Assembly: GCA_963768855.1 (NCBI GenBank) | Contig: CAVYJM010000006.1 | Span: 1,063,195-1,127,194, forward strand | DNA: 64,000 bases | From: an uncultured Thermoplasmata archaeon | GTDB taxonomy: Archaea; Thermoplasmatota; Thermoplasmata; RBG-16-68-12 | Reading direction: 5' to 3' | Shown: positions 38,336 through 52,573 of the stretch, piece by piece | Layout: each line of letters begins with the position of its first letter | Position numbering within the stretch: the first letter of the stretch is position 1 | The notes under the pieces: generated by a model | Told to the model about the DNA's origin: nothing | The model's input: the letters and a program-made list of their open reading frames with translations, nothing else | Databases searched by the model: none | Translations under genes and position numbers: made by a program

Positions 38336-40561
38336 GTGGAGACGAAAGCGGATGCGGGTGGCCCCGCGACCGTGACCTGTCGCGTCTGCGGCGGCGAGGT
38401 GAACACCCGGGGTGAGTGCGTCGTCTGCGGGACGAAGCAGTCGGACCCCCAGGCGGCCTCGGCCGAGAACGGGCTCGCTTCCTGGCTGAAGGGCGATTCC
38501 GGCGAGAACGGGCTCAGCACTTGGATTGGATCCCCGGTCCCGCCACCGAACCAGGACGGCCGCGAGGATGCGCTCCGCAAGTGGCTCGCCGGCGAGGACA
38601 ACGCCTTCCAGGATTGGATCGGCACGGCGTCCGGCGGGACGGTCACCGCCTCCAAGGCCGCCAAGGCCACCGGACGCGTGCCGGATGAGAAGCTCCGGGA
38701 ACTCCGCTCGAAGGCCCTTGAGGCCGACGGGTTGCGGGCGGAACTCGAGTCCATGCGCACCACGCTCGCACGCGAGCTCGCGAACTTCCGCTCGGGTCGG
38801 TTCGACCCCGTTCAGTACATCGAGGAGGTCGCGGGCCTCTCCAAGCGGCTCGAGACCGAGATTGCACGGAGGAAGGAGCTCGAGCAGGAGATCGAGCACA
38901 TCAAGAAAGGCTCCATCGCGGTCATCAAGTACGTCAAGGGTCAGCAGCTGAAGGCCGGTCCCGCCCTCGACCTGAAGAAACGGATCGGCCAGGAGGTCGT
39001 ATCCCGCCAGCGGCTCCAGGCCGAGCTGGGCGAGCTGAAAGCCGTGAACGAGGCGCTCAAGGACAAGATCGAGGTCGGCCTCGCGAAGGTAAAGCCCTCT
39101 GAACGGGAGCTGAAGAAGCGGGACCTCGCCCTCGTCGAGCGGGAGGCGGCCCTCGCGGTAAGGGAGGCGTCCGGCGGTGCCCGAGCCGCGCCCGAATCGT
39201 TCGGCATCACGGTCGTCGATGAGGAACTGAAGCGGCGTCTCGAGGAGGAGCTCCGGGAGAAGGAGCATGAGTACCTCGAGAAGGAAGAGGACTTCAAGAG
39301 GCGGATCATCGCCCTCGAGGAGGAGAGAAACAAGGCACGGATCGAGGAGCAGCTCCGGGCGCAGGAGAAGGCCCTCGAGAACAAGCCGAAACGGGAGATC
39401 GAGGACGTCCTGCGCCGCAAGGAGCAAGAGCTCCTGAGCAAGGAGAAGAGCATGCTCCTTCGCGAGCAGGAGATCCAGCGGCTGCAGGAGGAGCTCGGGC
39501 TGAGGGAAGACGAGCTCAAGAAGCTCAAAGAGCCGCTCGCATTCAAAGAGGAGGAAATCCTGCGCCGCGAGCAGGACCTCACATACCGCGAGAACCGCCT
39601 CGAGGCTGAGCTCAAGAAGGCCGAGCAGGCGAAGGCCCAGGGTGGCACCACCGAGGAAGTCGATCTCAAGTCCCGCCTCGAGGAGCTCAAGGGCGAGATC
39701 ACTCAGAAGGAGGAAGAGGTCCGCAACAAGGAGAAGTACCTCCAGACGAAGATGGAGGAGCTACGCCTCCGCGAACAGGGCATGATTGAGGAGGAAATCG
39801 AGGCTCGGGCCGACGACCGGAAGACCGAGGTCAAGCAGCAGAAGGTCAAGACCGGGATCGCGCGCCTCGACGATTTGCTGTTCGGCGGCATCCCGTTCGG
39901 CTCCAACGTCTCCGTCTACGGCCCCGCGTATGTCGGCAAGGAGGTGCTCGTCAGCCTGTTCATGGCCGACGGCCTTAAGAAGGGCCTCCCGGTCCTCTGG
40001 ATTCTCACGGACAAGGGCCCCGCGGACATCCGCGAGGACATGGCCTTCGTTCTCCCCGACTACGAGGAGCGGGAGAAGCTCGGCCTTGTGCATTACATCG
40101 ACGCGTACTCGAAATCCATGGGCGCGGACACCGGCGACCCGAACACGACGTACATCGACGACCCGACGGACCACCAGGCCATCCTGAAGGCCACGGACAC
40201 GATCGCGGCGGAGTGGAAGCAGAAGCACCAGAGCTACCGTCTGGCGTTCCGCAGCGTGTCGACCCTCATCGCCTACCTCGATCCCACGACCACGTTCAAG
40301 TTCCTCCAGCCGTTCGTCGGCCGCCGCAAGCGGGACAAGGCGGTCGCGTTCTACGTGATCGAGAAGGGAATGCACGAGGAGCAGGAGATCCAGATGCTCG
40401 GGTCCCTCATGGACGGCTCGATCGAGTTCAAGGTCGAGCAGCTCAAGTCGTTCCTGAGCATCAAAGGCATCTGCGACGTGCAGAGCCGGAGCTGGATCCG
40501 CTACACGTACACGAAGAGCAGCGTGTCGATCGGTTCGTTCAGCCTGGACCACATCAAGTAA
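38336..40561 (+). CDS. Zinc ribbon + long coiled coil + degenerate KaiC/RAD55-like domain
   Basis: CRVCG..CVVCG; E/K/R-rich heptads; KTGIARLDDLLFGGIP, GPAYVGKE, RLAFRS. Confidence 0.85.
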   Translation: METKADAGGPATVTCRVCGGEVNTRGECVVCGTKQSDPQAASAENGLASWLKGDSGENGLSTWIGSPVPPPNQDGREDALRKWLAGEDNAFQDWIGTASGGTVTASKAAKATGRVPDEKLRELRSKALEADGLRAELESMRTTLARELANFRSGRFDPVQYIEEVAGLSKRLETEIARRKELEQEIEHIKKGSIAVIKYVKGQQLKAGPALDLKKRIGQEVVSRQRLQAELGELKAVNEALKDKIEVGLAKVKPSERELKKRDLALVEREAALAVREASGGARAAPESFGITVVDEELKRRLEEELREKEHEYLEKEEDFKRRIIALEEERNKARIEEQLRAQEKALENKPKREIEDVLRRKEQELLSKEKSMLLREQEIQRLQEELGLREDELKKLKEPLAFKEEEILRREQDLTYRENRLEAELKKAEQAKAQGGTTEEVDLKSRLEELKGEITQKEEEVRNKEKYLQTKMEELRLREQGMIEEEIEARADDRKTEVKQQKVKTGIARLDDLLFGGIPFGSNVSVYGPAYVGKEVLVSLFMADGLKKGLPVLWILTDKGPADIREDMAFVLPDYEEREKLGLVHYIDAYSKSMGADTGDPNTTYIDDPTDHQAILKATDTIAAEWKQKHQSYRLAFRSVSTLIAYLDPTTTFKFLQPFVGRRKRDKAVAFYVIEKGMHEEQEIQMLGSLMDGSIEFKVEQLKSFLSIKGICDVQSRSWIRYTYTKSSVSIGSFSLDHIK

Positions 40562-41011: not shown

Positions 41012-41088
41012 CCGTACGAACGGCCCGCCTCGATATGAACTTTCCCGGTCCGCGGGCTTTATCCTTCCCGGGGCCTCTCCACGCCGGG

Positions 41089-42486
41089 ATGGTGCTCTGG
41101 GTCGGCGTGGATGACACGGACAGCCTCCGCGGGATGTGCACCACGTTCCTCGCGACGGAGATCGTCCGGGAGCTCACCCTCACGCGCGACCTGATCGGAT
41201 ATCCGCGGCTCGTGCGCCTCAACCCGAACATCCCCTGGAAGACTCGAGGGAACGGGGCGCTCGCGATGCGGTTCGGGCGCGGGACCGGGCGCCCGCAGGT
41301 CGTGGGCCACATCGGAGACCGCGTCATCCGGTCCTATCCGCGCGGCGCCGGCCACGAGGATCCCGAGGAGCTCCGAGCGCCCCTCGAGGACCTGATGAAG
41401 CGATGGTCCGTCTTCGACGATCCGACCACGAACCCCGCGTTCGCCGTCCTCGGCCGGCCGCCTCCGGCTTCACTCTACTGGAAAGCCGTCCGCCGAGTAG
41501 TCTCGAAGCGGGAGGCGCGGGACGCCGCGGCCCGATTGGGGGTCCTCCGCGGCTACAAGAACGGTCGCGGCATCATCGGCGCGACGGCGGCGATTGCGTG
41601 GCGACCGCGCGACCGAACCTACGAGGTTCTGGCCTACCGCCATCCGAGGTACTGGGGCCTGAGGCGGGAGATTGACGCCGCATCGGTGCAGGCCATGGAT
41701 CGTCGCTTCCGCTCGACGTTCAACAACTATGACTACCAGAACGATGCAGTCGTCATCGCGCCGCACTCCCCCTGCCCCGTCCTGTTTGGAGTCCGCGGGG
41801 ACGAACCGGGGTGCCTGCCCGCCGCCATGCGGACGATCCGGGGGGAGCGGCCTGAACGGTGGATGCTCTTCGAGACGAATCAGGGGACGGATGACCACGT
41901 GGCGTGGGATGACTGGTCGCTCCTCCCCTTCTCCGCGACCTCCGTCGAGGGCTGGGTGCGGTCGAAGCCCGTGACCCTCCCAGGCGGCCACGTCTTCTTC
42001 GATCTGGAGGGCCGGGAGTGGGTCACCGTGGGCGCGTACGAGCCGTCGAAGCAGTTCCGGGAGACCGTGCGAGCGCTGCGTCCCGGGGATCGGGTTCGGG
42101 TCGTCGGAAGCATCCGGGACGAGCCGCGGACCCTCAACCTCGAGCGGCTGGAGGTCCTCTCTCTCACGGAATCGTGGCGGAAGACCGCGAACCCCCGCTG
42201 CCCGGTGTGCGGGAAGTCGATGAAGTCCCGGGGCTACCAGGCGGGATTCCGGTGCCTTCGCGGTCATGCGGATGCGCCGCCCGGCTCCGTGGTTACCGAA
42301 CGCGAGGTCCGCGGCCTTGAGTTGGGGCTCTACGAACCCCCTGCCTCCGCGCGTCGCCATCTCGCGAAGCCCGTGAAGCGGATCCTGGGCACCGCGCCCC
42401 CGATCCGCATCAGGTCCGGTGCTGTCCCTCTGCAAGCCGTCCGGACGGGCCCCCTCAAGGCCCAACCGCGAGCTGCCGCGTCGTGA
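41089..42486 (+). CDS. tiaS: tRNA(Ile2) agmatinylcytidine synthetase
   Basis: VGVDDTDS..GMCTT, LVRLNPNIPWKTRGN, GRGIIGA, PCPVLFGVRG, TNQGTD, OB fold, CPVCG...C. Confidence 0.93.
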   Translation: MVLWVGVDDTDSLRGMCTTFLATEIVRELTLTRDLIGYPRLVRLNPNIPWKTRGNGALAMRFGRGTGRPQVVGHIGDRVIRSYPRGAGHEDPEELRAPLEDLMKRWSVFDDPTTNPAFAVLGRPPPASLYWKAVRRVVSKREARDAAARLGVLRGYKNGRGIIGATAAIAWRPRDRTYEVLAYRHPRYWGLRREIDAASVQAMDRRFRSTFNNYDYQNDAVVIAPHSPCPVLFGVRGDEPGCLPAAMRTIRGERPERWMLFETNQGTDDHVAWDDWSLLPFSATSVEGWVRSKPVTLPGGHVFFDLEGREWVTVGAYEPSKQFRETVRALRPGDRVRVVGSIRDEPRTLNLERLEVLSLTESWRKTANPRCPVCGKSMKSRGYQAGFRCLRGHADAPPGSVVTEREVRGLELGLYEPPASARRHLAKPVKRILGTAPPIRIRSGAVPLQAVRTGPLKAQPRAAAS

Positions 42487-42487
42487 C

Positions 42488-42862
42488 TTATTCCTCCCGG
42501 CGTGGGAGATTAGGGAACACGAAGCGGGCCATGTAGAAGTGCCCCTCGAGCCAGAGCGCCACGACCAGCCCGATCGCGGTGACGGACCATCCCGCGACGC
42601 CCGGGATCAGGAAGATCGCTTCCGGGATCACGAGCAGGTCGACGAAGACGCAGCCCGTCAGGAACAGCGCCCGCAGAATCTCCATGCGGATGGGGACCGA
42701 CTGGGCGCGGCTCAGGAACCGCTGCCGACGTTGTTGGGCGCGGCGCACAAGGTAGCCGCTGATCGTCCCCTGCCGCTCCACCACGCCTTGGGGACGCGCG
42801 TCCTCGCGAGGCGCCTTCCGGGCCCGGAGGGGCTGGGCGTCCGGGGACCCTTCGTCGACCAT
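42488..42862 (-). CDS. Small 2-TM membrane protein
   Basis: Basic N-terminus, two hydrophobic helices; abuts oppF, probably co-transcribed. Confidence 0.55.
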   Translation of the reverse strand: MVDEGSPDAQPLRARKAPREDARPQGVVERQGTISGYLVRRAQQRRQRFLSRAQSVPIRMEILRALFLTGCVFVDLLVIPEAIFLIPGVAGWSVTAIGLVVALWLEGHFYMARFVFPNLPRREE

Positions 42863-44275
42863 TCAGGTCGGGGCCTTCTTCGCGGGAGCTTCGGGGCCGC
42901 CAAGGCTCTCGAGTCCCAGGTCCCGCGCCGTCGCGAAGCACGCGACCTGCCGTTCGTTCCCTGCATCAAAGAGCTTAGGTTCGATCGCCCGGCACGGCTC
43001 GAACGCGAGCCAGCAGCGCGGATGGAACCGGCATCCGGAAGGCGGGCGGGTCGGGCTGGGCACCTCGCCTTCGAGGATGATCCGCTCGATCTTCACACTC
43101 GGATCGGCGGAGGGGGCCGCGGAGATGAGGGCCTTCGTGTACGGATGCAGAGGTTCTCGGAAGATGTCCTCCGTATCCCCGACCTCTACGATTTTGCCCG
43201 CATACATGACGGCAACGCGGTCCGCGATGTGGTAGACCACGCTCAGGTCATGGGTGATGAAGAGGTAGGTGAGGCCCAGCTTCGTCTGGAGGGACATCAG
43301 CAGGTTCAGGATCTGGGCTTGCACCGAGACATCCAGGGCGGAGGTGGGTTCGTCGAGGATGATCACATCGGGATTGAGTGCGAGTGCCCTCGCGACATTA
43401 ATCCGCTGGCGTTGGCCTCCGGAGAATTCATGAGGGAAGCGGTTGAGGTGCTCTTTCTTCAGGCCTACGAGTTCGAGGAGGTCGAGGACCCGATGGGTCA
43501 CCTCTTCGCCCGTCACGAAGTGTCTCCGGACGACAAACAGGTACGCGAGGAGGAAGACCGACTCTCCGATTTGGATCAGGTTGGGGACGAGGGACACGGA
43601 GAGCACAAGATTCACTCCGGCAAGGATGGCCACCCCCCACCATGCCCACCCCTCGAGTCTCCACAGGCCTAGAGCGAACCAGACTAGCATTCCGCTGAAA
43701 GCTGCCAGGTAGAGTGCGAAGAGGATGGGGCCGAAAGTGAGAGCTCCGAGATAGGCCGCAACGCCTGCGACGAGGAGAACAAGCACCGCGAGTGTCACGG
43801 AAATGGCCGCCACGAGAGCCACGAGTCCGGCGAGGATTGCAACGCTCAGGGGCCGTGTCTCCGACCTCTGGTGGACTATGAGCGGCTCGGCGATGATGTT
43901 CTTCACAGTCATCCTCGGGTTCAGGGAGGACATCGGATCCTGGAACACCATCTGCAGGTGCTTCCTCTCGTCTCGAATGACGCGAAGTTTCTCCGAGGCG
44001 AGGTCGCGGCCCATGAAGAAGACCTTGCCTGCTGAGGGATCGAGGAGGCGGAGGAGGAGTCGGGCGAGGGTGCTCTTCCCGCATCCGGACTCTCCGACGA
44101 CCGCCAGCGTCTCCCCGCGATGCAACTTCAGGGACACACCGTCCACGGCCATGACGTGTCCCTTCACGGTGCGCAGCAGGCCGCCGCGGAGCGGGAAGTG
44201 CATCTTGACGTCCTCGGCAGCCAGCAGGACATCTTGGTTGGAGAGTTTGCCGGGTGCAGCCGAATCGGCGCTCAT
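42863..44275 (-). CDS. oppF: Oligopeptide ABC ATPase OppF with inserted 113-aa membrane domain
   Basis: [51 protein letters not shown]; insert 43517-43855. Confidence 0.9.
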
Positions 44276-45879
44276 GGAATCGTCGCTCCTGCGGGAACGG
44301 GGTTATGGCAGGCGACGAGGTGCCCGGGCTCCATCTCCTGCAGGGCGGGCATCGTCGTCTTGCACACATCGAGGGCCCTCGGACAGCGCGGATGGAAGCG
44401 ACAGCCGGACGGCGGATGGAGGAGGTTCGGCACGCTCCCGCGGATGATGTAGAGATCACGCTTACGGGCTTGCGCGCTCTCTCCCTTGAACCGCGGGATC
44501 GACTGCATCAGGCCGTTCGTGTACGGGTGCATCATCCGGTGGAACACCTGCTCGGTCGTCCCGAACTCCGCGATGTGACCCGCATACATGACCCCGACCT
44601 TGTCGCAGACCTCCGCCACGATGCCCAGGTCATGCGTGATGAGCAGGATCGCCATGTTCGTCTTCGCCTGGAGCTCCTTCATGAGCTTCAGGATCTGCGC
44701 CTCGACCGTGACGTCGAGCGCGGTCGTCGGCTCGTCGGCGATTAGGAGCTCGGGATTGCACGCCATCATCATGGCGATCATGGACCGCTGTCGCATGCCT
44801 CCGGAGAGCTCGAAGGGGTACTGACCCGCAATCCGCTCCGGCTCGGCGATTCTTACTTCCCGCAGCATGTCGACCGCCCATCGGACGCCCTCATCCTGGA
44901 GGCGGGATCGCACCAGGCGACGAAGGACGCGGACCGCGCCGATGAAGTCCACGAGTTGGTCGTACGGATCTCGGAGCATGCGCTCGTACAGCTTCTTCTC
45001 GGTGGACATGATGCGGCCTCGGAACGGGGCCCAGAGATCGAAGCTGAGTCGGGCCCCGCATGAGGGACAGCAATCCCACAGCCCGGGTGCGAGCGACCAG
45101 CACGCGCTGCATACGGTCTCGTCGTCCTTCAGGCTGAGCAACCGGCCGTAGATTCCCCGCTCCTCATCGGAGAACCTGTCGGGATTCCGGTCCCCGCGGA
45201 AGGAATCTCGCGCCTGCACCGCGGTCCGGCGGTTCCCTCGGACCTTCTTCTCGCGCGCCTTCATCTGAAGTTCGAGGGCCTTGAGCACGCCACGGCAGAG
45301 TTCTGGCTTCCGATGGAGCATGAGGGTTTCCGCGATCTGGTTCCCAATCGTGAAGACCGGGTTCAGAGCGGTCATAGGCTCTTGGAAGATCATCGAGATC
45401 TTGTTTCCCCGGATCCTCCGGATGTCTTCGACGGGTTTCTGGAGGAGGTCGAACTCGGAGGTGGCGGCCTGCAGCCGGCGCTCGATGTCGAGCTTCTCTT
45501 CCTCGGACTTCGCGGACGTGAGGCGGGAACGGAGCGTTTCGATCTCTGGCTTCAGCGCCTCCATGATTGGAAGGCTCGACGCACCCGCCTGCGCGTCCTG
45601 CCGGCGCAGTCGATCTAGGGCGAGGACATCGTATTCCTTGCGCAGGGCTCGGACCTCGTCCGGTTCGTCGAGGAAGACGCGCCCTGCTTCGATCGTTCCC
45701 GGAGGACTCGGGATCAGGCGGAGGACCGACAACGCCGTCACGGACTTCCCGCACCCCGTCTCGCCCACGAGCCCCACGGTCTCGCCCGTGCAGACTTCGA
45801 GGTCGATCGATTCGAGAGCCTGGACCGTCCCTTCGTAGGTGTGGAAGTAGGTCTTCAGACCCTCGATTCGGAGCACCAC
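44272..45879 (-). CDS. oppD: Oligopeptide ABC ATPase OppD with coiled-coil and zinc-ribbon insertions
   Basis: [47 protein letters not shown]; inserts ~45451-45669 and ~44890-45309. Confidence 0.9.
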
Positions 45880-45895
45880 ACGTCCGTTCGTCCGG

Positions 45896-46855
45896 TCACC
45901 TCCGGAGCCGCGGATCGAGGATGTCCCGGAGGCCGTCCCCGAGCAGATTGAACCCGAGTACGGTCAGCACGATCGCGATGCCGGGGAAGACCGACATCCA
46001 CCACGCGTTGAACAGATAGGTGAGGCCCTCGGAGATCATCACGCCCCACTCCGCCGTCCCCGGCGGCGCGCCGAGACCCAGGAAGCCGAGCCCCGCGGCG
46101 GTCAGGATGACGTAGCCGAAGTCCATGGAGGCCTGCACGATTACGGGTGAGACGGAGTTCGGGAGCACGTGGCGCAGCATGAGCCGTGTGGGGCTCGCGC
46201 CGACGCTCTTCGCGGATTCGACGAACTGCCTTTCCTTGATGGAGAGGACCTGCCCACGCACGAGCCGAGTGTACCAGGGCCACCAGGTGATGATGAGCGC
46301 GTACATCACGTGCTCGATGCTCCTCCCGAGGACCGCGGTGATCGCAATCGCCAGGATGAGGCTCGGGATTGAGAGGAAGATGTCCGTGATCCGCATGACC
46401 ACCTCCTCGATGACGCCTCCCTTGAACCCCGCGACCAGCCCGAGGAGGGAGCCGATCAGGGAGGCGGGGATCACGACCAAGAGGCCCACTTCCAAGGAGA
46501 CGCTGGCCCCGTAGAGGACCTTGCTGTACCAGTCCGTCCCGAAGTTGTCCGTGCCGAAGGGATGGGCCAGGGACGGTCCCAGGAAGACCTGGTAGTCCCC
46601 GGGCAGGTCGTGGAACTGCCAGCGCTGCTGGAGCTGTCCGTTGATATTCACATAGGTCGGTTGCTGGACGGCCAGGTAGGGCGCGAGGAACGCAATCGCG
46701 ACGACCAGCAGGATCAGGACGAGCCCCAGCACCGCGAGCCGGTTCTTCCGGAACAGGAAGAGGGTGTACTTCAGCTCAGAGATGCGCGAGGCATGGTCTT
46801 CGAGGAAGTCCCGCCACCACCCGCCCGGGGCCTGCTTTCCCGTCTCCACCGCCAC
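45896..46855 (-). CDS. oppC: Oligopeptide ABC permease
   Basis: HPFGTD, LYGA..SL, MRITDIF, FVESAKSVGAS, RHVLPN, LGFLGLG, NLLGDGLRD.LDPR. Confidence 0.93.
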   Translation of the reverse strand: MAVETGKQAPGGWWRDFLEDHASRISELKYTLFLFRKNRLAVLGLVLILLVVAIAFLAPYLAVQQPTYVNINGQLQQRWQFHDLPGDYQVFLGPSLAHPFGTDNFGTDWYSKVLYGASVSLEVGLLVVIPASLIGSLLGLVAGFKGGVIEEVVMRITDIFLSIPSLILAIAITAVLGRSIEHVMYALIITWWPWYTRLVRGQVLSIKERQFVESAKSVGASPTRLMLRHVLPNSVSPVIVQASMDFGYVILTAAGLGFLGLGAPPGTAEWGVMISEGLTYLFNAWWMSVFPGIAIVLTVLGFNLLGDGLRDILDPRLRR

Positions 46856-46856
46856 G

Positions 46857-47891
46857 TCAGGAGCCTCCCAGCCGCACCTGAGGGTCCGCTGCGGCGTACA
46901 GTACGTCGATGACCAGGTTCGCGCTCACGTAGAAGACGGTGACCACGAAGAGGTAGCCCAGGAGGTCCGTGAAGCCCGCGTGCAAGGCGGCCTGGAGGAA
47001 GTACTTCCCTATGCCGTTCCAACTAAAGATGCTCTCCACGTAGACGTCGCCCGCAAAGGCCGAGCCGACCGTGAGGCCCGCGACAGTCAGCGTCGCGTTC
47101 GTTGCGTTGCGGAACCCGTGGCGGAAGATGACGTCCCGTTCGGGGACACCCTTCGCTCGCGCCGTGCGAATATAGTCCTGGCCAAGGACCTCGAGCATCC
47201 CTGAACGGGTCATCCGCAAAATGATGGCGAGTTGCGCGAACCCCAGAGTGAAGGCGGGCAGGAGGAGGTGAGCGACCGCGGAGATGAAGTCCGTTAGGTT
47301 CAGTGCGAGAACCGAGTCGATCGTATAGAAACCCGTAACGGTTGGCGGGGGTAGCAGGGTCGGATCGAGTCGCCCATCCAGGGGCAGTATGTTCAGTCCG
47401 ACGACCGCTAGATTCTCGTGGAAGAAGATCTTCAGCATGATGCCGAGCCAATAGATCGGGATCGCGACGCCAAGGATCGCGATGAACCTCGAAAGGTGAT
47501 CTACCCACTTGTTCCGCTTCATCGCCGAAACGATACCAAGGTAGATGCCGACAGGCAAGGCGAACAGCATTGCCGCGATGGTGAGTTCTAGGGTCGCTGG
47601 GAGGAACGTGGCGAGATTGTCCAGCACCGGGAAGTGATTCACGAAGGACGGGCCCCAGTTGCCGGTCACGAGCCGTCCCATGTAGAAGAGGTACTGACTC
47701 GGAAGAGGATCATCGAGGTGCCAATCCGCGTGGAACTGGGCGATTTGTTCGGGCCTGGCTTTCGAGCCCAGGTAGGAGAGCGCGGGGTCGATGGGAATGG
47801 CTTTCCAGAGGACGAAGGCGATCACGGTTACGCCGATGATAACCGGGATGAGCGCGATGAGTCGCCGGACGACGTATTCCCAGAGTTTCAT
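46857..47891 (-). CDS. oppB: Oligopeptide ABC permease
   Basis: PIDPA, LPATLEL, RMTRSGMLEVLGQDYIRTARAKG, ESIFSWNGIG. Confidence 0.93.
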   Translation of the reverse strand: MKLWEYVVRRLIALIPVIIGVTVIAFVLWKAIPIDPALSYLGSKARPEQIAQFHADWHLDDPLPSQYLFYMGRLVTGNWGPSFVNHFPVLDNLATFLPATLELTIAAMLFALPVGIYLGIVSAMKRNKWVDHLSRFIAILGVAIPIYWLGIMLKIFFHENLAVVGLNILPLDGRLDPTLLPPPTVTGFYTIDSVLALNLTDFISAVAHLLLPAFTLGFAQLAIILRMTRSGMLEVLGQDYIRTARAKGVPERDVIFRHGFRNATNATLTVAGLTVGSAFAGDVYVESIFSWNGIGKYFLQAALHAGFTDLLGYLFVVTVFYVSANLVIDVLYAAADPQVRLGGS

Positions 47892-48033
47892 GGGGTGGGC
47901 CCATCACCTCCCCCTGAAGACGTGGATCGCACGCTTTTCATTCCCGCGCCCGCATGCCTCAGGCTCGGACAACAGCGGTTTTGGTTATTTACCCTGCGCT
48001 CTTAGTCTAGCGAATTCGGGGAAAAGGGAAAGG

Positions 48034-48053
48034 GAGGGGGCCTAGGCCCCCTC
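48034..48053 (-). terminator. Perfect 20-bp palindrome followed by a pyrimidine tract downstream of oppA
   Basis: GAGGGGGCCTAGGCCCCCTC then CCTTTCCCTTTTCCCC on the minus strand; a second hairpin GGGTCC/GGACCC lies just upstream. Confidence 0.6.
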
Positions 48054-48081
48054 ATCGGGTCCGCGCGGGACCCGGTCGCTC

Positions 48082-49794
48082 CTACGTCTTCTGGTAGAAG
48101 TAGAAGTTGTACCAGGTCACCGGGTTGAAGAAGAACCCTTTCATGTAGCTCTGGTAGATGGGTACGTACTGCTGTTGGCAGAACCAGATCATGTTGGGGT
48201 TCGCCATCGCGGTCGCCCAGACCTGCGCGTAGTCCGCCGCACGGGTGGTCGTGCTCAGCTCGGATCGGGCGATCGAGGCGTAGTGGTCGATCGTCGTGTT
48301 GGCGAAGCCCGTATGCCAGTAGTCCCCACCGAAGTCGGAACTCATGACCATCGGGGTCACATAGTCGTCGGCGTCGAGGTAGTCGAGGACCCAGTGCGCC
48401 ACGAAGAAGTCGTACGCAGCGGTGCTGCGCGCCGTGTCCCAGGCGTCGGTCGACGGCTTGATCTGCAGGTCCGTGTGGACGCCGAGGCCCTGCAGCGTGG
48501 TCTGGAACCGCCTGGCCGCGTTGGCTTCCTCGAGCTGTGTCCCATCCGCGACGATGCGGAATGCGTAGCCGCCAAACCGGGTGTTCCCTACCTTTGGATA
48601 GCCAGCTTGGTCAAGGAGCTGACCGGCCTTGGTCAGGTTCTGGTAGTAGTACTGGTGCTGCGAATCGAAGTACTGCATCCCAGCCGGGATGGGTCCAGGC
48701 AGGAAGCTCGCGAAGCCCGCGTAGTCGTTCGCAATCGTCGCGTTGTAGTCGAACGCGTAGGAGAACGCCTGCCGCACGAGGCGCCCCGAGGCGTTGTCGG
48801 CCATGTACGGGTTCGTCACGTTCATCGCAACAATCTCGCTCTTGATCGTGGTGTTCGCCTTCGCCACTACCCCCGACAGGCCCGTGACTTGGGAGACGGA
48901 CGAGAGCGGGAGGTCCGCAATGTCTGCGGCGCCCGTCCGGATCGCCTCGACGCGCGAGGTGGGGTCGCTCGTGAACTTCATGACGAGCGTCGTCGGCTCG
49001 GTCCCGTGCCATCCGCGCCAGAAGTGAGTGTTCGCATGCAATGTCATCTGGCTGCCTTTGATCCAGTCGGAGGAGCTCATGCAGTAGGGGCCCGTGCCCA
49101 TCGTGTTCTGCTTGATGTAGTCGTTCGCGATGTAGTGATGCACGCCTCCGTGCGCCTCAATCCACGCGCCCTCCATGATGGAGGAGGGCTCCACCGTGGC
49201 AAGCGTCACCAGGAAGGCGGTGTACGGAGCAGTCAGGTTCATCTGAATCGTGTACGTGTCCTTCACCCAAAGGGATCCCGGGAGGTTGTTGGGGTCGAGG
49301 GTCTGGTTCAGAATCCACGCGACTCCCGATTCCGGCGAAGCCTCGAGGAGAACCTTGCGGAAAGAGGCGTACACATCGTTCGCGGTCAGGTTGTTGCCGT
49401 CACAGAACTGGACACCCTGGCGGATGTGGAATGTATAGTTGAGTCCGTCCGCGGAGATCCCGCCGTTCGCCACGGTGGGGACTTCCGAGGCCAGGTCCGG
49501 CACGAGCGTGGTCGTGTCCTTGTTGTAGCCGAGCAGTGTGTCGTAGGTATTCTGGAGGGCGACGAACGACCAGAGGTCGTACGCGTCCGACGAATCCATC
49601 GTCACGGGCTCGGACTGCATGTAATAGACGAGTGTGCTCGTGTCTCGCGTGGCTGCGGGTCGCGTGATCACGTATGCGACCGCTGCGATAATGACGATTG
49701 CGACGACCGCGATGATTGCCCACAGCCGCCACCCCATCCCACGCTTCGCCGGCGGTCCGCCGGGCGGCGGGGATGCACCTCCTCCTTCTGCCAT
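48082..49794 (-). CDS. oppA: Oligopeptide ABC substrate-binding protein with N-terminal TM anchor
   Basis: YDTLLGY, YTFHIRQGVQF.DG..LTA.DV, MGTGPY, VRQAFSYAFD. Confidence 0.92.
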   Translation of the reverse strand: MAEGGGASPPPGGPPAKRGMGWRLWAIIAVVAIVIIAAVAYVITRPAATRDTSTLVYYMQSEPVTMDSSDAYDLWSFVALQNTYDTLLGYNKDTTTLVPDLASEVPTVANGGISADGLNYTFHIRQGVQFCDGNNLTANDVYASFRKVLLEASPESGVAWILNQTLDPNNLPGSLWVKDTYTIQMNLTAPYTAFLVTLATVEPSSIMEGAWIEAHGGVHHYIANDYIKQNTMGTGPYCMSSSDWIKGSQMTLHANTHFWRGWHGTEPTTLVMKFTSDPTSRVEAIRTGAADIADLPLSSVSQVTGLSGVVAKANTTIKSEIVAMNVTNPYMADNASGRLVRQAFSYAFDYNATIANDYAGFASFLPGPIPAGMQYFDSQHQYYYQNLTKAGQLLDQAGYPKVGNTRFGGYAFRIVADGTQLEEANAARRFQTTLQGLGVHTDLQIKPSTDAWDTARSTAAYDFFVAHWVLDYLDADDYVTPMVMSSDFGGDYWHTGFANTTIDHYASIARSELSTTTRAADYAQVWATAMANPNMIWFCQQQYVPIYQSYMKGFFFNPVTWYNFYFYQKT

Positions 49795-49907
49795 GCAAGG
49801 GGAATCCGGATGTCTCTATATGAACATGACCAAGAAACCTCGATGTAGAACAACTCTCGAAGAGAAACAGGAAATGGAGAGCGCGACCCGCGCTCTCCCT
49901 GGCTCCC

Positions 49908-51233
49908 TCACTTCCCGACGCGCTTGAACGATCCCTCGAGAACGTCGAGTCCCGCGTCGAGAACATCCTCCTCGATGTTCAGCGCGGGGATGTAGCGCAT
50001 CCCGGAATCACCGCACGTCAGGAGGATGAGGCCGTGCTCGTACGCATCCTTCTCGATCGCATCGCGGACCTTCGGGTTGGGCTTGTTCGTCCTGCGGTCC
50101 GTGACGAACTCCGTGCACTGCATCATGCCAAGGCCGCGTCGGTCTCCGATGAACTCGAAGGCGTCCTTCATTTCGTCCAGGCGCTTCGCCATGTGCGCGC
50201 CCAGCTTGGCGGACCGCGCCACGAGCCCCTCGGACTCGATCACGTCGATCACGGCCAACGACGATGCGGCCGCGACCGGGTTGCCGCCGTACGTGTTCGA
50301 GTGCTTCCCCGACATGGGGAAGTCCATCTTCGCGTCGAACACCGCGACGCCGATCGGTATGCCTCCGCCGAGGGACTTGGCCAGGACCATGATGTCGGGA
50401 ATGACCTTCGAGTGATCGATGCCCCACATCTTCCCGGTCCGTCCGAAGCCGGTCTGGACCTCATCGGCGATGAACAGGAAGTCGTTGTCCTTCGCGATCT
50501 TCCCGATCCGGTCGAGCCATCCCGGCGGCGGCACGATGTAGCCGCCCTCGCCCTGGACCGGTTCGACGAAGATGGCCGCGAGGTCCTCGGGCGGCGCGAT
50601 CGTCTTCAGGTAGAGGTCCTCGATGATGTTCGCGCAGTACAGGTCGCACGAGGGGTAGGTGAGCTTGTACGGGCAGCGGTAACAATAGGCGAACGGCACG
50701 TGGACGACGCCAGGCATGCTCGGGAAGAACCCGGACTTCTGCTTCGCCTTGCTCGCGGTCAGGGAGAGCGCGCCCTGCGACCTCCCATGGAACGCGCCGA
50801 GGAACGCGAGGAACATCTGCCGCTTCTTGTAGTACTTCGCGATCTTGATCGCGGCCTCGTTGCCCTCCCCACCCGAGTTGGCGAAGAAGGTCTTCTTCGC
50901 ATGCTTGCCCGGGGTGATCTCAGCGAGCTTCTTCGCGAGCTGCGTCTGCACATCGTAGTAGTAGTCCGTGCCGGCGAAGTGCATGAATTCGCCGGCCTGC
51001 TTGCGGACCGCCTCGACCACCTTCGGATGGGAGAGGCCGACGTTGAGCACGGAGATGCCCGACGCGAAGTCGATGAGCAGGTTCCCATCGACGTCCTCGA
51101 CGACGGCGCCCGAGCCTCGTTTGATGACGATCGGGGCGGACTTCGTGGTCGTGGCCATGTACTTCTTGTCGCGCTCGATCACCTCTCGCGCCTTCGGGCC
51201 CGGAGGGGTGACTTTGATGTCGGGGACTTTCAC
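49908..51233 (-). CDS. Class III PLP aminotransferase (4-aminobutyrate/acetylornithine type)
   Basis: NSGGEGNEAAIK, FHGRS, EPVQGEGG, DEVQTGFGRTG, AKSLGGG, NTYGGN. Confidence 0.9.
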   Translation of the reverse strand: MKVPDIKVTPPGPKAREVIERDKKYMATTTKSAPIVIKRGSGAVVEDVDGNLLIDFASGISVLNVGLSHPKVVEAVRKQAGEFMHFAGTDYYYDVQTQLAKKLAEITPGKHAKKTFFANSGGEGNEAAIKIAKYYKKRQMFLAFLGAFHGRSQGALSLTASKAKQKSGFFPSMPGVVHVPFAYCYRCPYKLTYPSCDLYCANIIEDLYLKTIAPPEDLAAIFVEPVQGEGGYIVPPPGWLDRIGKIAKDNDFLFIADEVQTGFGRTGKMWGIDHSKVIPDIMVLAKSLGGGIPIGVAVFDAKMDFPMSGKHSNTYGGNPVAAASSLAVIDVIESEGLVARSAKLGAHMAKRLDEMKDAFEFIGDRRGLGMMQCTEFVTDRRTNKPNPKVRDAIEKDAYEHGLILLTCGDSGMRYIPALNIEEDVLDAGLDVLEGSFKRVGK

Positions 51234-51651: not shown

Positions 51652-52029
51652 ATGACCGCGCCCGGCTATGTCCCGAGTCCGAGTCGTCCCATCGGCGTCG
51701 CGATCTTGGCCATCCTCGTCATCCTGGTCGGCGCCTTGTTCCTCCTCGGCGCGCTCGGACTCCTCCTTCTAGCGGGGTTCGCCGCAATCCGGGGGCTGCC
51801 GACGTTCTTCGGGCTCACGGGCGCGTTCCTCGGCGTGGTCCTCCTTATCTTCGCGTTCATCTTCATCGGCGTGGGCCTGGGCCTCTGGCGTTTGCGGAGC
51901 TGGGCCTGGTGGCTCGCCATCATCGTCCTCGTGCTCGACATCATCGGGAGCCTCGCGGACCCGGTCGGACTCGTCATCCCTCTCATCCTGCTGATCTACC
52001 TCGTCCTCGTCCGTCAGCACTTCCGTTAG
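51652..52029 (+). CDS. Small 4-TM protein homologous to the OppF insert
   Basis: RPIGVAILA...GLWRLRSWAWW...IYLVLVRQHF; ATTATATA box upstream. Confidence 0.8.
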   Translation: MTAPGYVPSPSRPIGVAILAILVILVGALFLLGALGLLLLAGFAAIRGLPTFFGLTGAFLGVVLLIFAFIFIGVGLGLWRLRSWAWWLAIIVLVLDIIGSLADPVGLVIPLILLIYLVLVRQHFR

Positions 52030-52165: not shown

Positions 52166-52573
52166 TTGGCAGAGAAACCAACAGCAGCGTTCGTGCTATC
52201 GTTGATCGGCGGCATTTTCATCCTTTTGGGCGGAGCTCTGATCGCAGCCGTGTTCGCCACGCTCGGCAGCATGTTCGGCGCACTCGGATTCGGAGACTTT
52301 GGCATGGGCATGACCATGGTGGGCGTGCTGGGCCTCGTGTTTGGCCTGATCATCATCGTCGCGGGCGTCATGATGTACATGAAACCGCAGCAGCACGTGA
52401 TGTGGGGCGTGATCGTCCTCCTGCTGGCGATTGTCAGCATCCCCTTCAGCCTGGCGGGCTTCCTGATCGGCTTCATCCTGGCCCTCATCGGCGGGATTCT
52501 CGGCCTCGTGTTCAAGCCGAGCATGCCCATGGCGGCTCCCTACGCGCCTCCGATGGCGCCGCCCCCGCAGTGA
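52166..52573 (+). CDS. 4-TM protein (DUF6114-like)
   Basis: [10 protein letters not shown]...[13 protein letters not shown]; CTTATATATA box upstream; TTG start. Confidence 0.75.

Follow-up and report, generated by a model that had tools for sequence, protein, structure and literature searches.

A predicted four-helix membrane module inside the ABC ATPase OppF of an uncultured Thermoplasmata archaeon

Can the motor subunit of a peptide importer carry a membrane domain of its own? The ATPases of ATP-binding cassette (ABC) importers are soluble motors that touch their membrane subunits only through a coupling helix, and this picture is challenged by a gene of an uncultured Thermoplasmata archaeon, in which four predicted membrane helices lie inside the mobile helical subdomain of the ATPase OppF. 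The gene belongs to a 64,000-nucleotide stretch of contig CAVYJM010000006.1; this whole stretch, as analyzed here, is called the window and supplies all coordinates unless a contig or locus is named. Its G+C content is ~60-73%, and it carries archaeal markers, among them the TiaS gene at 41035-42486. An earlier note, made from the sequence alone, had singled out oppF for a hydrophobic block within its reading frame and had seen in it the best candidate for an undescribed system. What we find instead is an inserted domain within an OppABCDF operon that is ordinary in other respects: OppF contains a module of 113 residues which, with high confidence as to both its anatomy and its origin, derives from a family of free-standing small membrane proteins. 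What the module does for the transporter can be proposed with moderate to low confidence.

The inserted module and its donor family

The open reading frame (ORF) of 470 codons retains the complete set of catalytic motifs, as the earlier note had claimed—Walker A (GESGCGKS, residues 61-68), the Q-loop (Q112), the signature (FSGGQ, 284-288), Walker B (ILDEP, 306-310), and the H-loop (H342) are all present and, in our alignment, invariant among orthologues, as are the four cysteines of the C-terminal cluster (C415, C421, C428, and C446). Pfam ABC_tran (PF00005) matches the protein in two separated stretches (E 9.3e-34), and oligo_HPY (PF08352) matches residues 363-428 with 76.3 bits against a cutoff of 27.1. 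The protein scored 413.7 bits with the NCBIfam subfamily model PRK11308 (dipeptide ABC transporter ATP-binding protein; cutoff 408), and fell below the equivalog cutoffs for DppF (NF043071, 381 versus 660 bits) and OppF (NF011659, 369 versus 540 bits); it is thus an OppF/DppF-type subunit by position and family, and no equivalog of the E. coli proteins. Foldseek matched the modelled protein best to E. coli OppF (8z21_D), DppF (8z1v_D), and related entries (E 1e-28, TM-score by target 0.82).

The insertion is most simply seen as a change in loop length. H135 and R262 of OppF are separated by 126 residues, where the loop of solved homologues has ~5 (in M. tuberculosis Rv1281c, query residues 133 and 257 align with chain residues 466 and 472) and where insert-less paralogues of related genomes have, by the same measure, a gap of 6; the value of about 10 that the earlier note gave for a normal OppF agrees with the ~5-10 of solved homologues. 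The 113 mostly hydrophobic residues that it had placed at 43517-43855 correspond exactly to R141-F253, which directly follow the native linker Q136-T140. Kyte-Doolittle means over 19 residues rise to 3.06 within the block, with the maximum in predicted helix 1, and a mere six of its residues are charged, all of them confined to predicted loops. Arginine and lysine are placed at the N-terminal flank, the central loop, and the C-terminal flank, a pattern that fits a four-span topology with both termini inside (N-in, C-in).

Structure prediction gave a similar picture. The AlphaFold2 (AF2) model of OppF, for which the input alignment combined insert-bearing orthologues, insert-less paralogues, and free-standing proteins, reached a mean predicted local distance difference test score (pLDDT) of 79.9—the nucleotide-binding domain (NBD) was confident, the insert stood at ~90, and the C-terminal 70 residues were of low confidence. 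In this model, linkers of 6 and 3 residues connect the module to the helical-subdomain helices 124-136 and 256-269. Hydropathy, AF2 helices, charge pattern, and family homology all fit the earlier note's prediction of a domain of about four transmembrane helices in the helical subdomain, which would make this NBD membrane-integrated.

The homology is to a family of small proteins that exist in their own right. Searched alone against related genomes, the insert matches free-standing ORFs of 127-170 residues, and one paralogue of the module (P0008) sits in the same window, 8 kb from the insert-bearing oppF. Within the genome, insert and P0008 are reciprocal best phmmer matches over the full length of the module (E 5e-11 and 1.5e-10), and BLASTP aligns them at 44% over 79 residues. 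A hidden Markov model (HMM) built from free-standing proteins only matches the insert at positions 8-124 of 125 (E 9.5e-16). Insert and free-standing proteins also share their landmarks, namely R-P at the start, GLGLWxLRxWAWW in the middle, and LxYLxLVRxHF at the end; the free-standing proteins terminate just past VRxHF, and it is at this point of the insert that the OppF sequence resumes. This end-to-end colinearity, with a shared end point, indicates that the insert is a complete captured gene product and no random hydrophobic stretch. AF2 predicts the same four helices for a free-standing protein (mean pLDDT 86).

In the database, the free-standing family comprises 111 clusters, mostly of ~125 residues, of which a few carry a precomputed DUF7144 (PF23636) annotation; the named members are called 'hypothetical protein [Thermoplasmata archaeon]'. 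Matches to Pfam families stay below the gathering thresholds: DUF7144 (27 bits) is matched by 6 of 13 module sequences, at best with E 2.4e-5, and not by the insert itself, and DUF2127 (PF09900, 24.3 bits) by 4 of the 13, at best with E 0.0023, P0008 scoring 17.1 bits (E 0.0066) in the GLWxL..WA region only. A language-model atlas likewise puts the module family beside DUF7144 and DUF2127 clusters.

In a quick maximum-likelihood tree, which has long branches and is weakly resolved, six helical-subdomain inserts cluster together (Shimodaira-Hasegawa-like approximate likelihood ratio test, SH-aLRT, 90), as would fit a single insertion event. They fall among divergent free-standing lineages and apart from the neighbouring gene P0008, which points to one old insertion and no recent local copy. 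We also considered a 10-nucleotide direct repeat, GTGTCTCCG(G/A), at 43520-43529 and 43855-43864, as a possible trace of the insertion; it is probably due to chance, because a third copy occurs at 43987, the two boundary copies differ from each other in frame, and the insertion event is an old one.

Insert-bearing orthologues, which the earlier note had suggested seeking in related genomes, number seven. A search with the insert only returned five metagenomic proteins of 446-470 residues with 47-98% identity within the insert (P0003-P0007), an exhaustive search of representatives added a protein of 472 residues (P0009), and a syntenic copy is present in a genome of the same genus (G023). Fused double-NBD proteins made up most of the matches in the representative search with full-length OppF, which therefore gives no count of the architecture's range. 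A search of longer proteins with P0008 retrieved nothing, candidates having been crowded out, and so does not bear on fusions elsewhere. In all seven orthologues, the insert is 112-113 residues long, has a mean Kyte-Doolittle value of 1.3-1.7, and bears charges at the same loop positions. Identity among orthologues is 80-92% in the NBD parts and 28-57% in the insert. A GLWRxEGWAW motif and the pair G237-E238 are invariant in the alignment of the window protein (P0001) with P0003-P0007, and P0009 and the G023 copy deviate from both.

Two separate wetland-metagenome studies provide contigs that cover 43200-44118 and 43200-44200 without indels at ~97% identity. Because these independent contigs cross both junctions, misassembly, against which the earlier note had advised a junction check, is excluded. 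A scan of genome contigs with the insert region gave no confirmed locus. In some contigs, short joints that skip 577-656 bases were examined as a candidate insert-less allele and rejected; their sides span only 20-26 letters at 90% likeness, and we take them for conserved NBD motifs belonging either to insert-less paralogues or to other organisms.

The same module was probably inserted a second time, independently. A sister genus has an OppF paralogue (locus L012 on G045:C112) in which ORF residues 158-283 form a colinear match to the module, located between Walker A and the Q-loop (hmmsearch E 6.5e-5; hhalign probability 81%, E 1.2e-5). Recurrence at a second site suggests that the combination of module and ATPase is selected. 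In the L012 paralogue, the helical-subdomain loop holds a Zn-ribbon, and the C-terminal Cys cluster contains an additional segment.

Hydrophobic inserts are not peculiar to this gene. In four or five further peptide-type ATPases of the genome (loci in Table 1), unrelated multi-helix inserts of ~175 residues lie between Walker A and the Q-loop, which makes the phenomenon lineage-wide. These inserts have no detectable sequence relation to the module and no Pfam family. Searching 301 genomes of the phylum by sequence did not recover the transmembrane insert of one of these ATPases (P0272), and analogous inserts could escape such a search.

Inserts of other kinds occur in the partners of OppF. OppD has 535 residues against the usual ~330 and holds a charged, helical insert of ~90 residues between Walker A and the Q-loop as well as one of ~135 residues, which bears a CxxC...CxxC Zn-ribbon and occupies the helical-subdomain loop corresponding to the one that houses the module in OppF; its orthologue at locus L001 has 566 residues. 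Given the different inserts at the two places, both the Walker A to Q-loop region and the helical-subdomain loop are hot spots of insertion in this lineage. The OppC orthologue at L001:1824-3614 (596 residues, 87% identical to the OppC of the window) carries a PKD/CarboxypepD_reg insertion, which the 319-residue OppC of the window is without.

A proposed role for the module

We propose that the module gives OppF a membrane anchor of its own, or an additional transmembrane element, located beside OppC, and assign this reading a probability of roughly 0.6. The complete coding sequence of a small membrane protein (~113 residues, four helices) was inserted in frame at the surface of the helical subdomain, in the loop that joins the first helix after the Q-loop to the second. 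With both ends of the module cytoplasmic, the two halves of the ATPase could fold as one normal NBD beneath the membrane, and the four helices would bundle inside it; helix 1, at 33 residues, is long enough for a short stalk and a bilayer span. In E. coli DppBCDF, DppF pairs with DppC, to which its residues N113 and E124 make polar contacts (PMC12136057). These residues align with N119 and E130 of the window OppF, and since the insertion point lies 6 residues past E130, the bundle is expected to border OppC at the edge of the translocator. So placed, it would keep OppF permanently attached to the OppBC translocator. It would also have to follow, or curb, the movement of the helical subdomain in the ATP cycle; in E. 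coli DppBCDF, this subdomain turns by ~20 degrees as the transporter passes between the inward-facing and the outward-facing state (PMC12136057). Membrane insertion in vivo, the position by OppC, and the anchoring or coupling role are what we infer from the predicted helices and from this alignment. A complex prediction of OppB and OppC with the isolated module, run twice and without controls, gave an ipSAE of 0.00 and weighs neither way.

Several observations weigh against an anchor. The transmembrane assignment of the module draws on hydropathy, AF2, and homology. A search of Protein Data Bank structures with the module on its own, modelled from the free-standing protein, had as its best match a tetraspanin at Z 10.5, under the ~13 needed for helical bundles, and a structure search of the Atlas returned generic helical bundles and DUF7144 models (one DUF7144 cluster at TM 0.65) and nothing functional. 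The insert changes at three to five times the rate of the NBD, which would also suit a passenger that is merely tolerated, and among the 44 genomes of the family just two, perhaps three, encode an insert-bearing OppF outright, to which a handful of metagenome contigs can be added. Other module paralogues of the genome, viewed in four neighbourhoods, have no consistent Opp linkage; gene context therefore gives no independent tie of the free-standing family to ABC importers. As to the function of that family, a literature search that left subscription journals mostly outside found no functional work on DUF2127.

It is unlikely, in our judgement, that the module serves instead as a regulatory or sensor element. 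In that role it would sense a small ligand, a lipid, or some property of the membrane and gate ATP hydrolysis by way of the helical subdomain, or else it would draw free-standing copies, or the product of the small gene that follows oppF (P0270), into a larger complex. The helical subdomain is the rotating part in the transport cycle (PMC12136057), and the Zn-ribbon that OppD carries in the same loop makes the loop look like an attachment place for accessory functions. G237-E238, kept in P0001 and P0003-P0007, has no counterpart in the free-standing family and so hints that a specific contact was newly acquired. Orthologues of P0270 follow the insert-bearing oppF in three operons (L001, L003, and G023), but paralogues at 30% identity also follow insert-less oppF genes, both in the same genome and in relatives, so that the small gene family is not specific to the insert. 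The module has no recognizable ligand-binding or signalling motif either, and most of it is poorly conserved (28-57%).

A broader idea, which we consider unlikely, reads the fusion as a Rosetta stone: DUF7144/DUF2127-like four-helix proteins would in general be accessory transmembrane subunits of ABC importers, one of which has here become wired to the helical subdomain, such that the rotation of this subdomain would be passed to the bundle beside the coupling-helix route. If true, motor and membrane would be joined mechanically by a second route, one not seen before in ABC transporters.

Distinctly unlikely is a nearly neutral passenger, that is, a chance in-frame insertion in a permissive loop that contributes nothing to transport and does no harm, since an even number of helices brings the chain back to the cytoplasm. 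The rapid divergence of the insert relative to the NBD, its narrow distribution, and the many different inserts accepted in this lineage by the loop and by the Walker A to Q-loop region are all in line with such a history. On the other hand, the length of the insert is constant to one residue and its hydrophobicity is retained despite divergence to ~28% identity, and the motif conserved in P0001 and P0003-P0007 includes residues that do not come from the free-standing family. Four transmembrane helices in an essential ATPase demand co-translational targeting, which would be costly if useless, and the probable presence of the same module at a second site in a paralogue also speaks against mere tolerance. 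Finally, that the assembly is chimeric here, or that the insertion inactivated oppF, is very improbable even in a metagenome-type assembly with 7.7% estimated contamination, given junctions bridged by contigs of two studies, seven distinct orthologues of the same architecture, invariant catalytic motifs in an open frame, and a gene translationally coupled in an intact operon.

An NBD with four membrane helices inside it would raise the questions of how a split catalytic domain is targeted co-translationally, how the complex is assembled, and whether the motion of the subdomain can be coupled to the bilayer. The identifiable donor, together with the probable recurrence at a second site, provides a first functional lead for the DUF7144/DUF2127-like family, and the case documents domain insertion through whole-gene capture. 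Its practical reach is limited (a few uncultured wetland archaea of a small clade).

The operon and its surroundings

The genes on the minus strand are ordered oppA, oppB, oppC, oppD, oppF, and P0270, and the ATG of oppF overlaps the stop codon of oppD (ATGA). P0270 has a basic N-terminus, two hydrophobic segments, and no Pfam match; a homologue at 60% identity is found on a separate contig of genome G013. The P0270 protein might add a sixth subunit to Opp systems of this kind.

In relatives, the free-standing four-helix gene is part of a block composed of a KaiC-like gene, TiaS, a polar amino acid ABC importer, a class III aminotransferase, DUF5679, the four-helix gene, Rpb6, and enolase, and a DUF6114 gene adjoins the four-helix gene on either side. 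The importer operon of three of these relatives (L040, L041, and L043), with SBP_bac_3, two permeases, and one ATPase, stands between TiaS and the class III aminotransferase. In the window (41035-51233), the Opp operon fills that slot, so that one operon has been exchanged for another inside a conserved block. Upstream, 38336-40561 on the plus strand encodes a protein of 741 residues with an N-terminal Zn-ribbon-like CxxC pair, a long charged coiled coil, and a C-terminal KaiC/RecA-like ATPase domain; PF06745 is found in its orthologues, and the gene is kept upstream of TiaS in relatives.

Table 1. Features of the oppF locus and related genes; positions are those of the window, except where a contig (C) is named
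Feature	Position	Strand	Remarks
oppF/dppF-type ABC ATPase gene (P0001)	42863..44275	-	470 aa, no internal stop
N-terminal NBD part, aa 1-140	43856..44275	-	Walker A, Q-loop, first helical-subdomain helix (124-136)
Inserted module, R141-F253	43517..43855	-	113 aa; DUF7144/DUF2127-like, four predicted membrane helices
Predicted transmembrane helix 1	43751..43849	-	aa 143-175, 33 residues; AF2 DSSP and hydropathy
Predicted transmembrane helix 2	43661..43735	-	aa 181-205; AF2 and hydropathy
Most conserved motif, aa 203-213	43637..43669	-	predicted cytoplasmic turn between helices 2 and 3; common to free-standing family (GLGLWxLRxWAWW)
Predicted transmembrane helix 3	43592..43651	-	aa 209-228; AF2 and hydropathy
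Predicted transmembrane helix 4	43520..43579	-	aa 233-252; bears G237-E238, ends VRRHF; AF2
C-terminal NBD part, aa 254-470	42863..43516	-	second helical-subdomain helix, signature, Walker B, H-loop, oligo_HPY with four Cys
Small gene P0270, directly 3' of oppF	42488..42862	-	124 aa
oppD	44272..45879	-	535 aa, two soluble inserts
oppC permease	45896..46855	-	319 aa, expected coupling partner of OppF
oppB permease	46857..47891	-	344 aa
oppA-type substrate-binding protein	48082..49794	-	570 aa, N-terminal hydrophobic anchor; assigned by sequence and operon position
Free-standing paralogue of the module (P0008)	51652..52029	+	~125 aa; ends VRQHFR* (insert: VRRHF)
DUF6114 small membrane protein	52166..52573	+	135 aa, beside free-standing four-helix gene
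Other insert-bearing ATPase, same genome	C6:767024-769321		
Other insert-bearing ATPase, same genome	C11:277393-279261		
Other insert-bearing ATPase, same genome	C21:107558-109783		
Other insert-bearing ATPase, same genome	C23:1387-3366		
Other insert-bearing ATPase, same genome	C24:22534-24564		

Comparison with known importers and with related proteins

Fold and motifs of the window OppF are those of the solved transporters E. coli OppBCDF (8z21) and DppBCDF (8z1v-8z1y) and M. tuberculosis OppABCD (8j5q) and DppABCD (8wd9); phmmer aligns the protein to DppF with E 1e-100. It also shares with importers of the PepT family (TC 3.A.1.5) the oligo_HPY domain with four cysteines, a [4Fe-4S] site in the solved proteins, and the gene order A-B-C-D-F. 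The resemblance ends at the loop after the first helical-subdomain helix. Solved PepT ATPases are soluble subunits without a membrane span, either of 310-334 residues (333-334 in E. coli DppF and OppF) or fused pairs, and have ~5-10 residues in this loop, whereas the window OppF departs from that definition with a hydrophobic four-helix module of 113 residues.

The structurally diverse region of ABC helical subdomains is a variable part of the NBD surface that tolerates insertions and has been implicated in communication between NBDs and transmembrane domains, and the regulatory insertion in NBD1 of CFTR is an example of a soluble NBD insertion. To our knowledge, the insertions known from NBD surfaces are short or soluble, and none is a membrane-spanning domain. 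No description of transmembrane helices inside an importer NBD was found in the literature searched, which left most subscription journals outside, and as far as we have searched, an OppF with a captured membrane domain has been described neither in a paper nor in a solved structure.

Further likenesses are found within the Thermoplasmata themselves. Their free-standing DUF7144/DUF2127-like proteins are colinear with the insert and have the same landmarks and four predicted helices; they differ in having their own start and stop, a short N-terminal tail, and a housekeeping neighbourhood (DUF5679, Rpb6, and enolase). Inserted copies are 31-39% identical to them, and the orthologues P0001 and P0003-P0007 have gained G237-E238. 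The other insert-bearing ATPases of the same genome also have membrane helices threaded through the NBD, likewise in even numbers, but at the Walker A to Q-loop site; the window OppF is set apart from them by its insertion in the helical subdomain and by an identifiable donor family.

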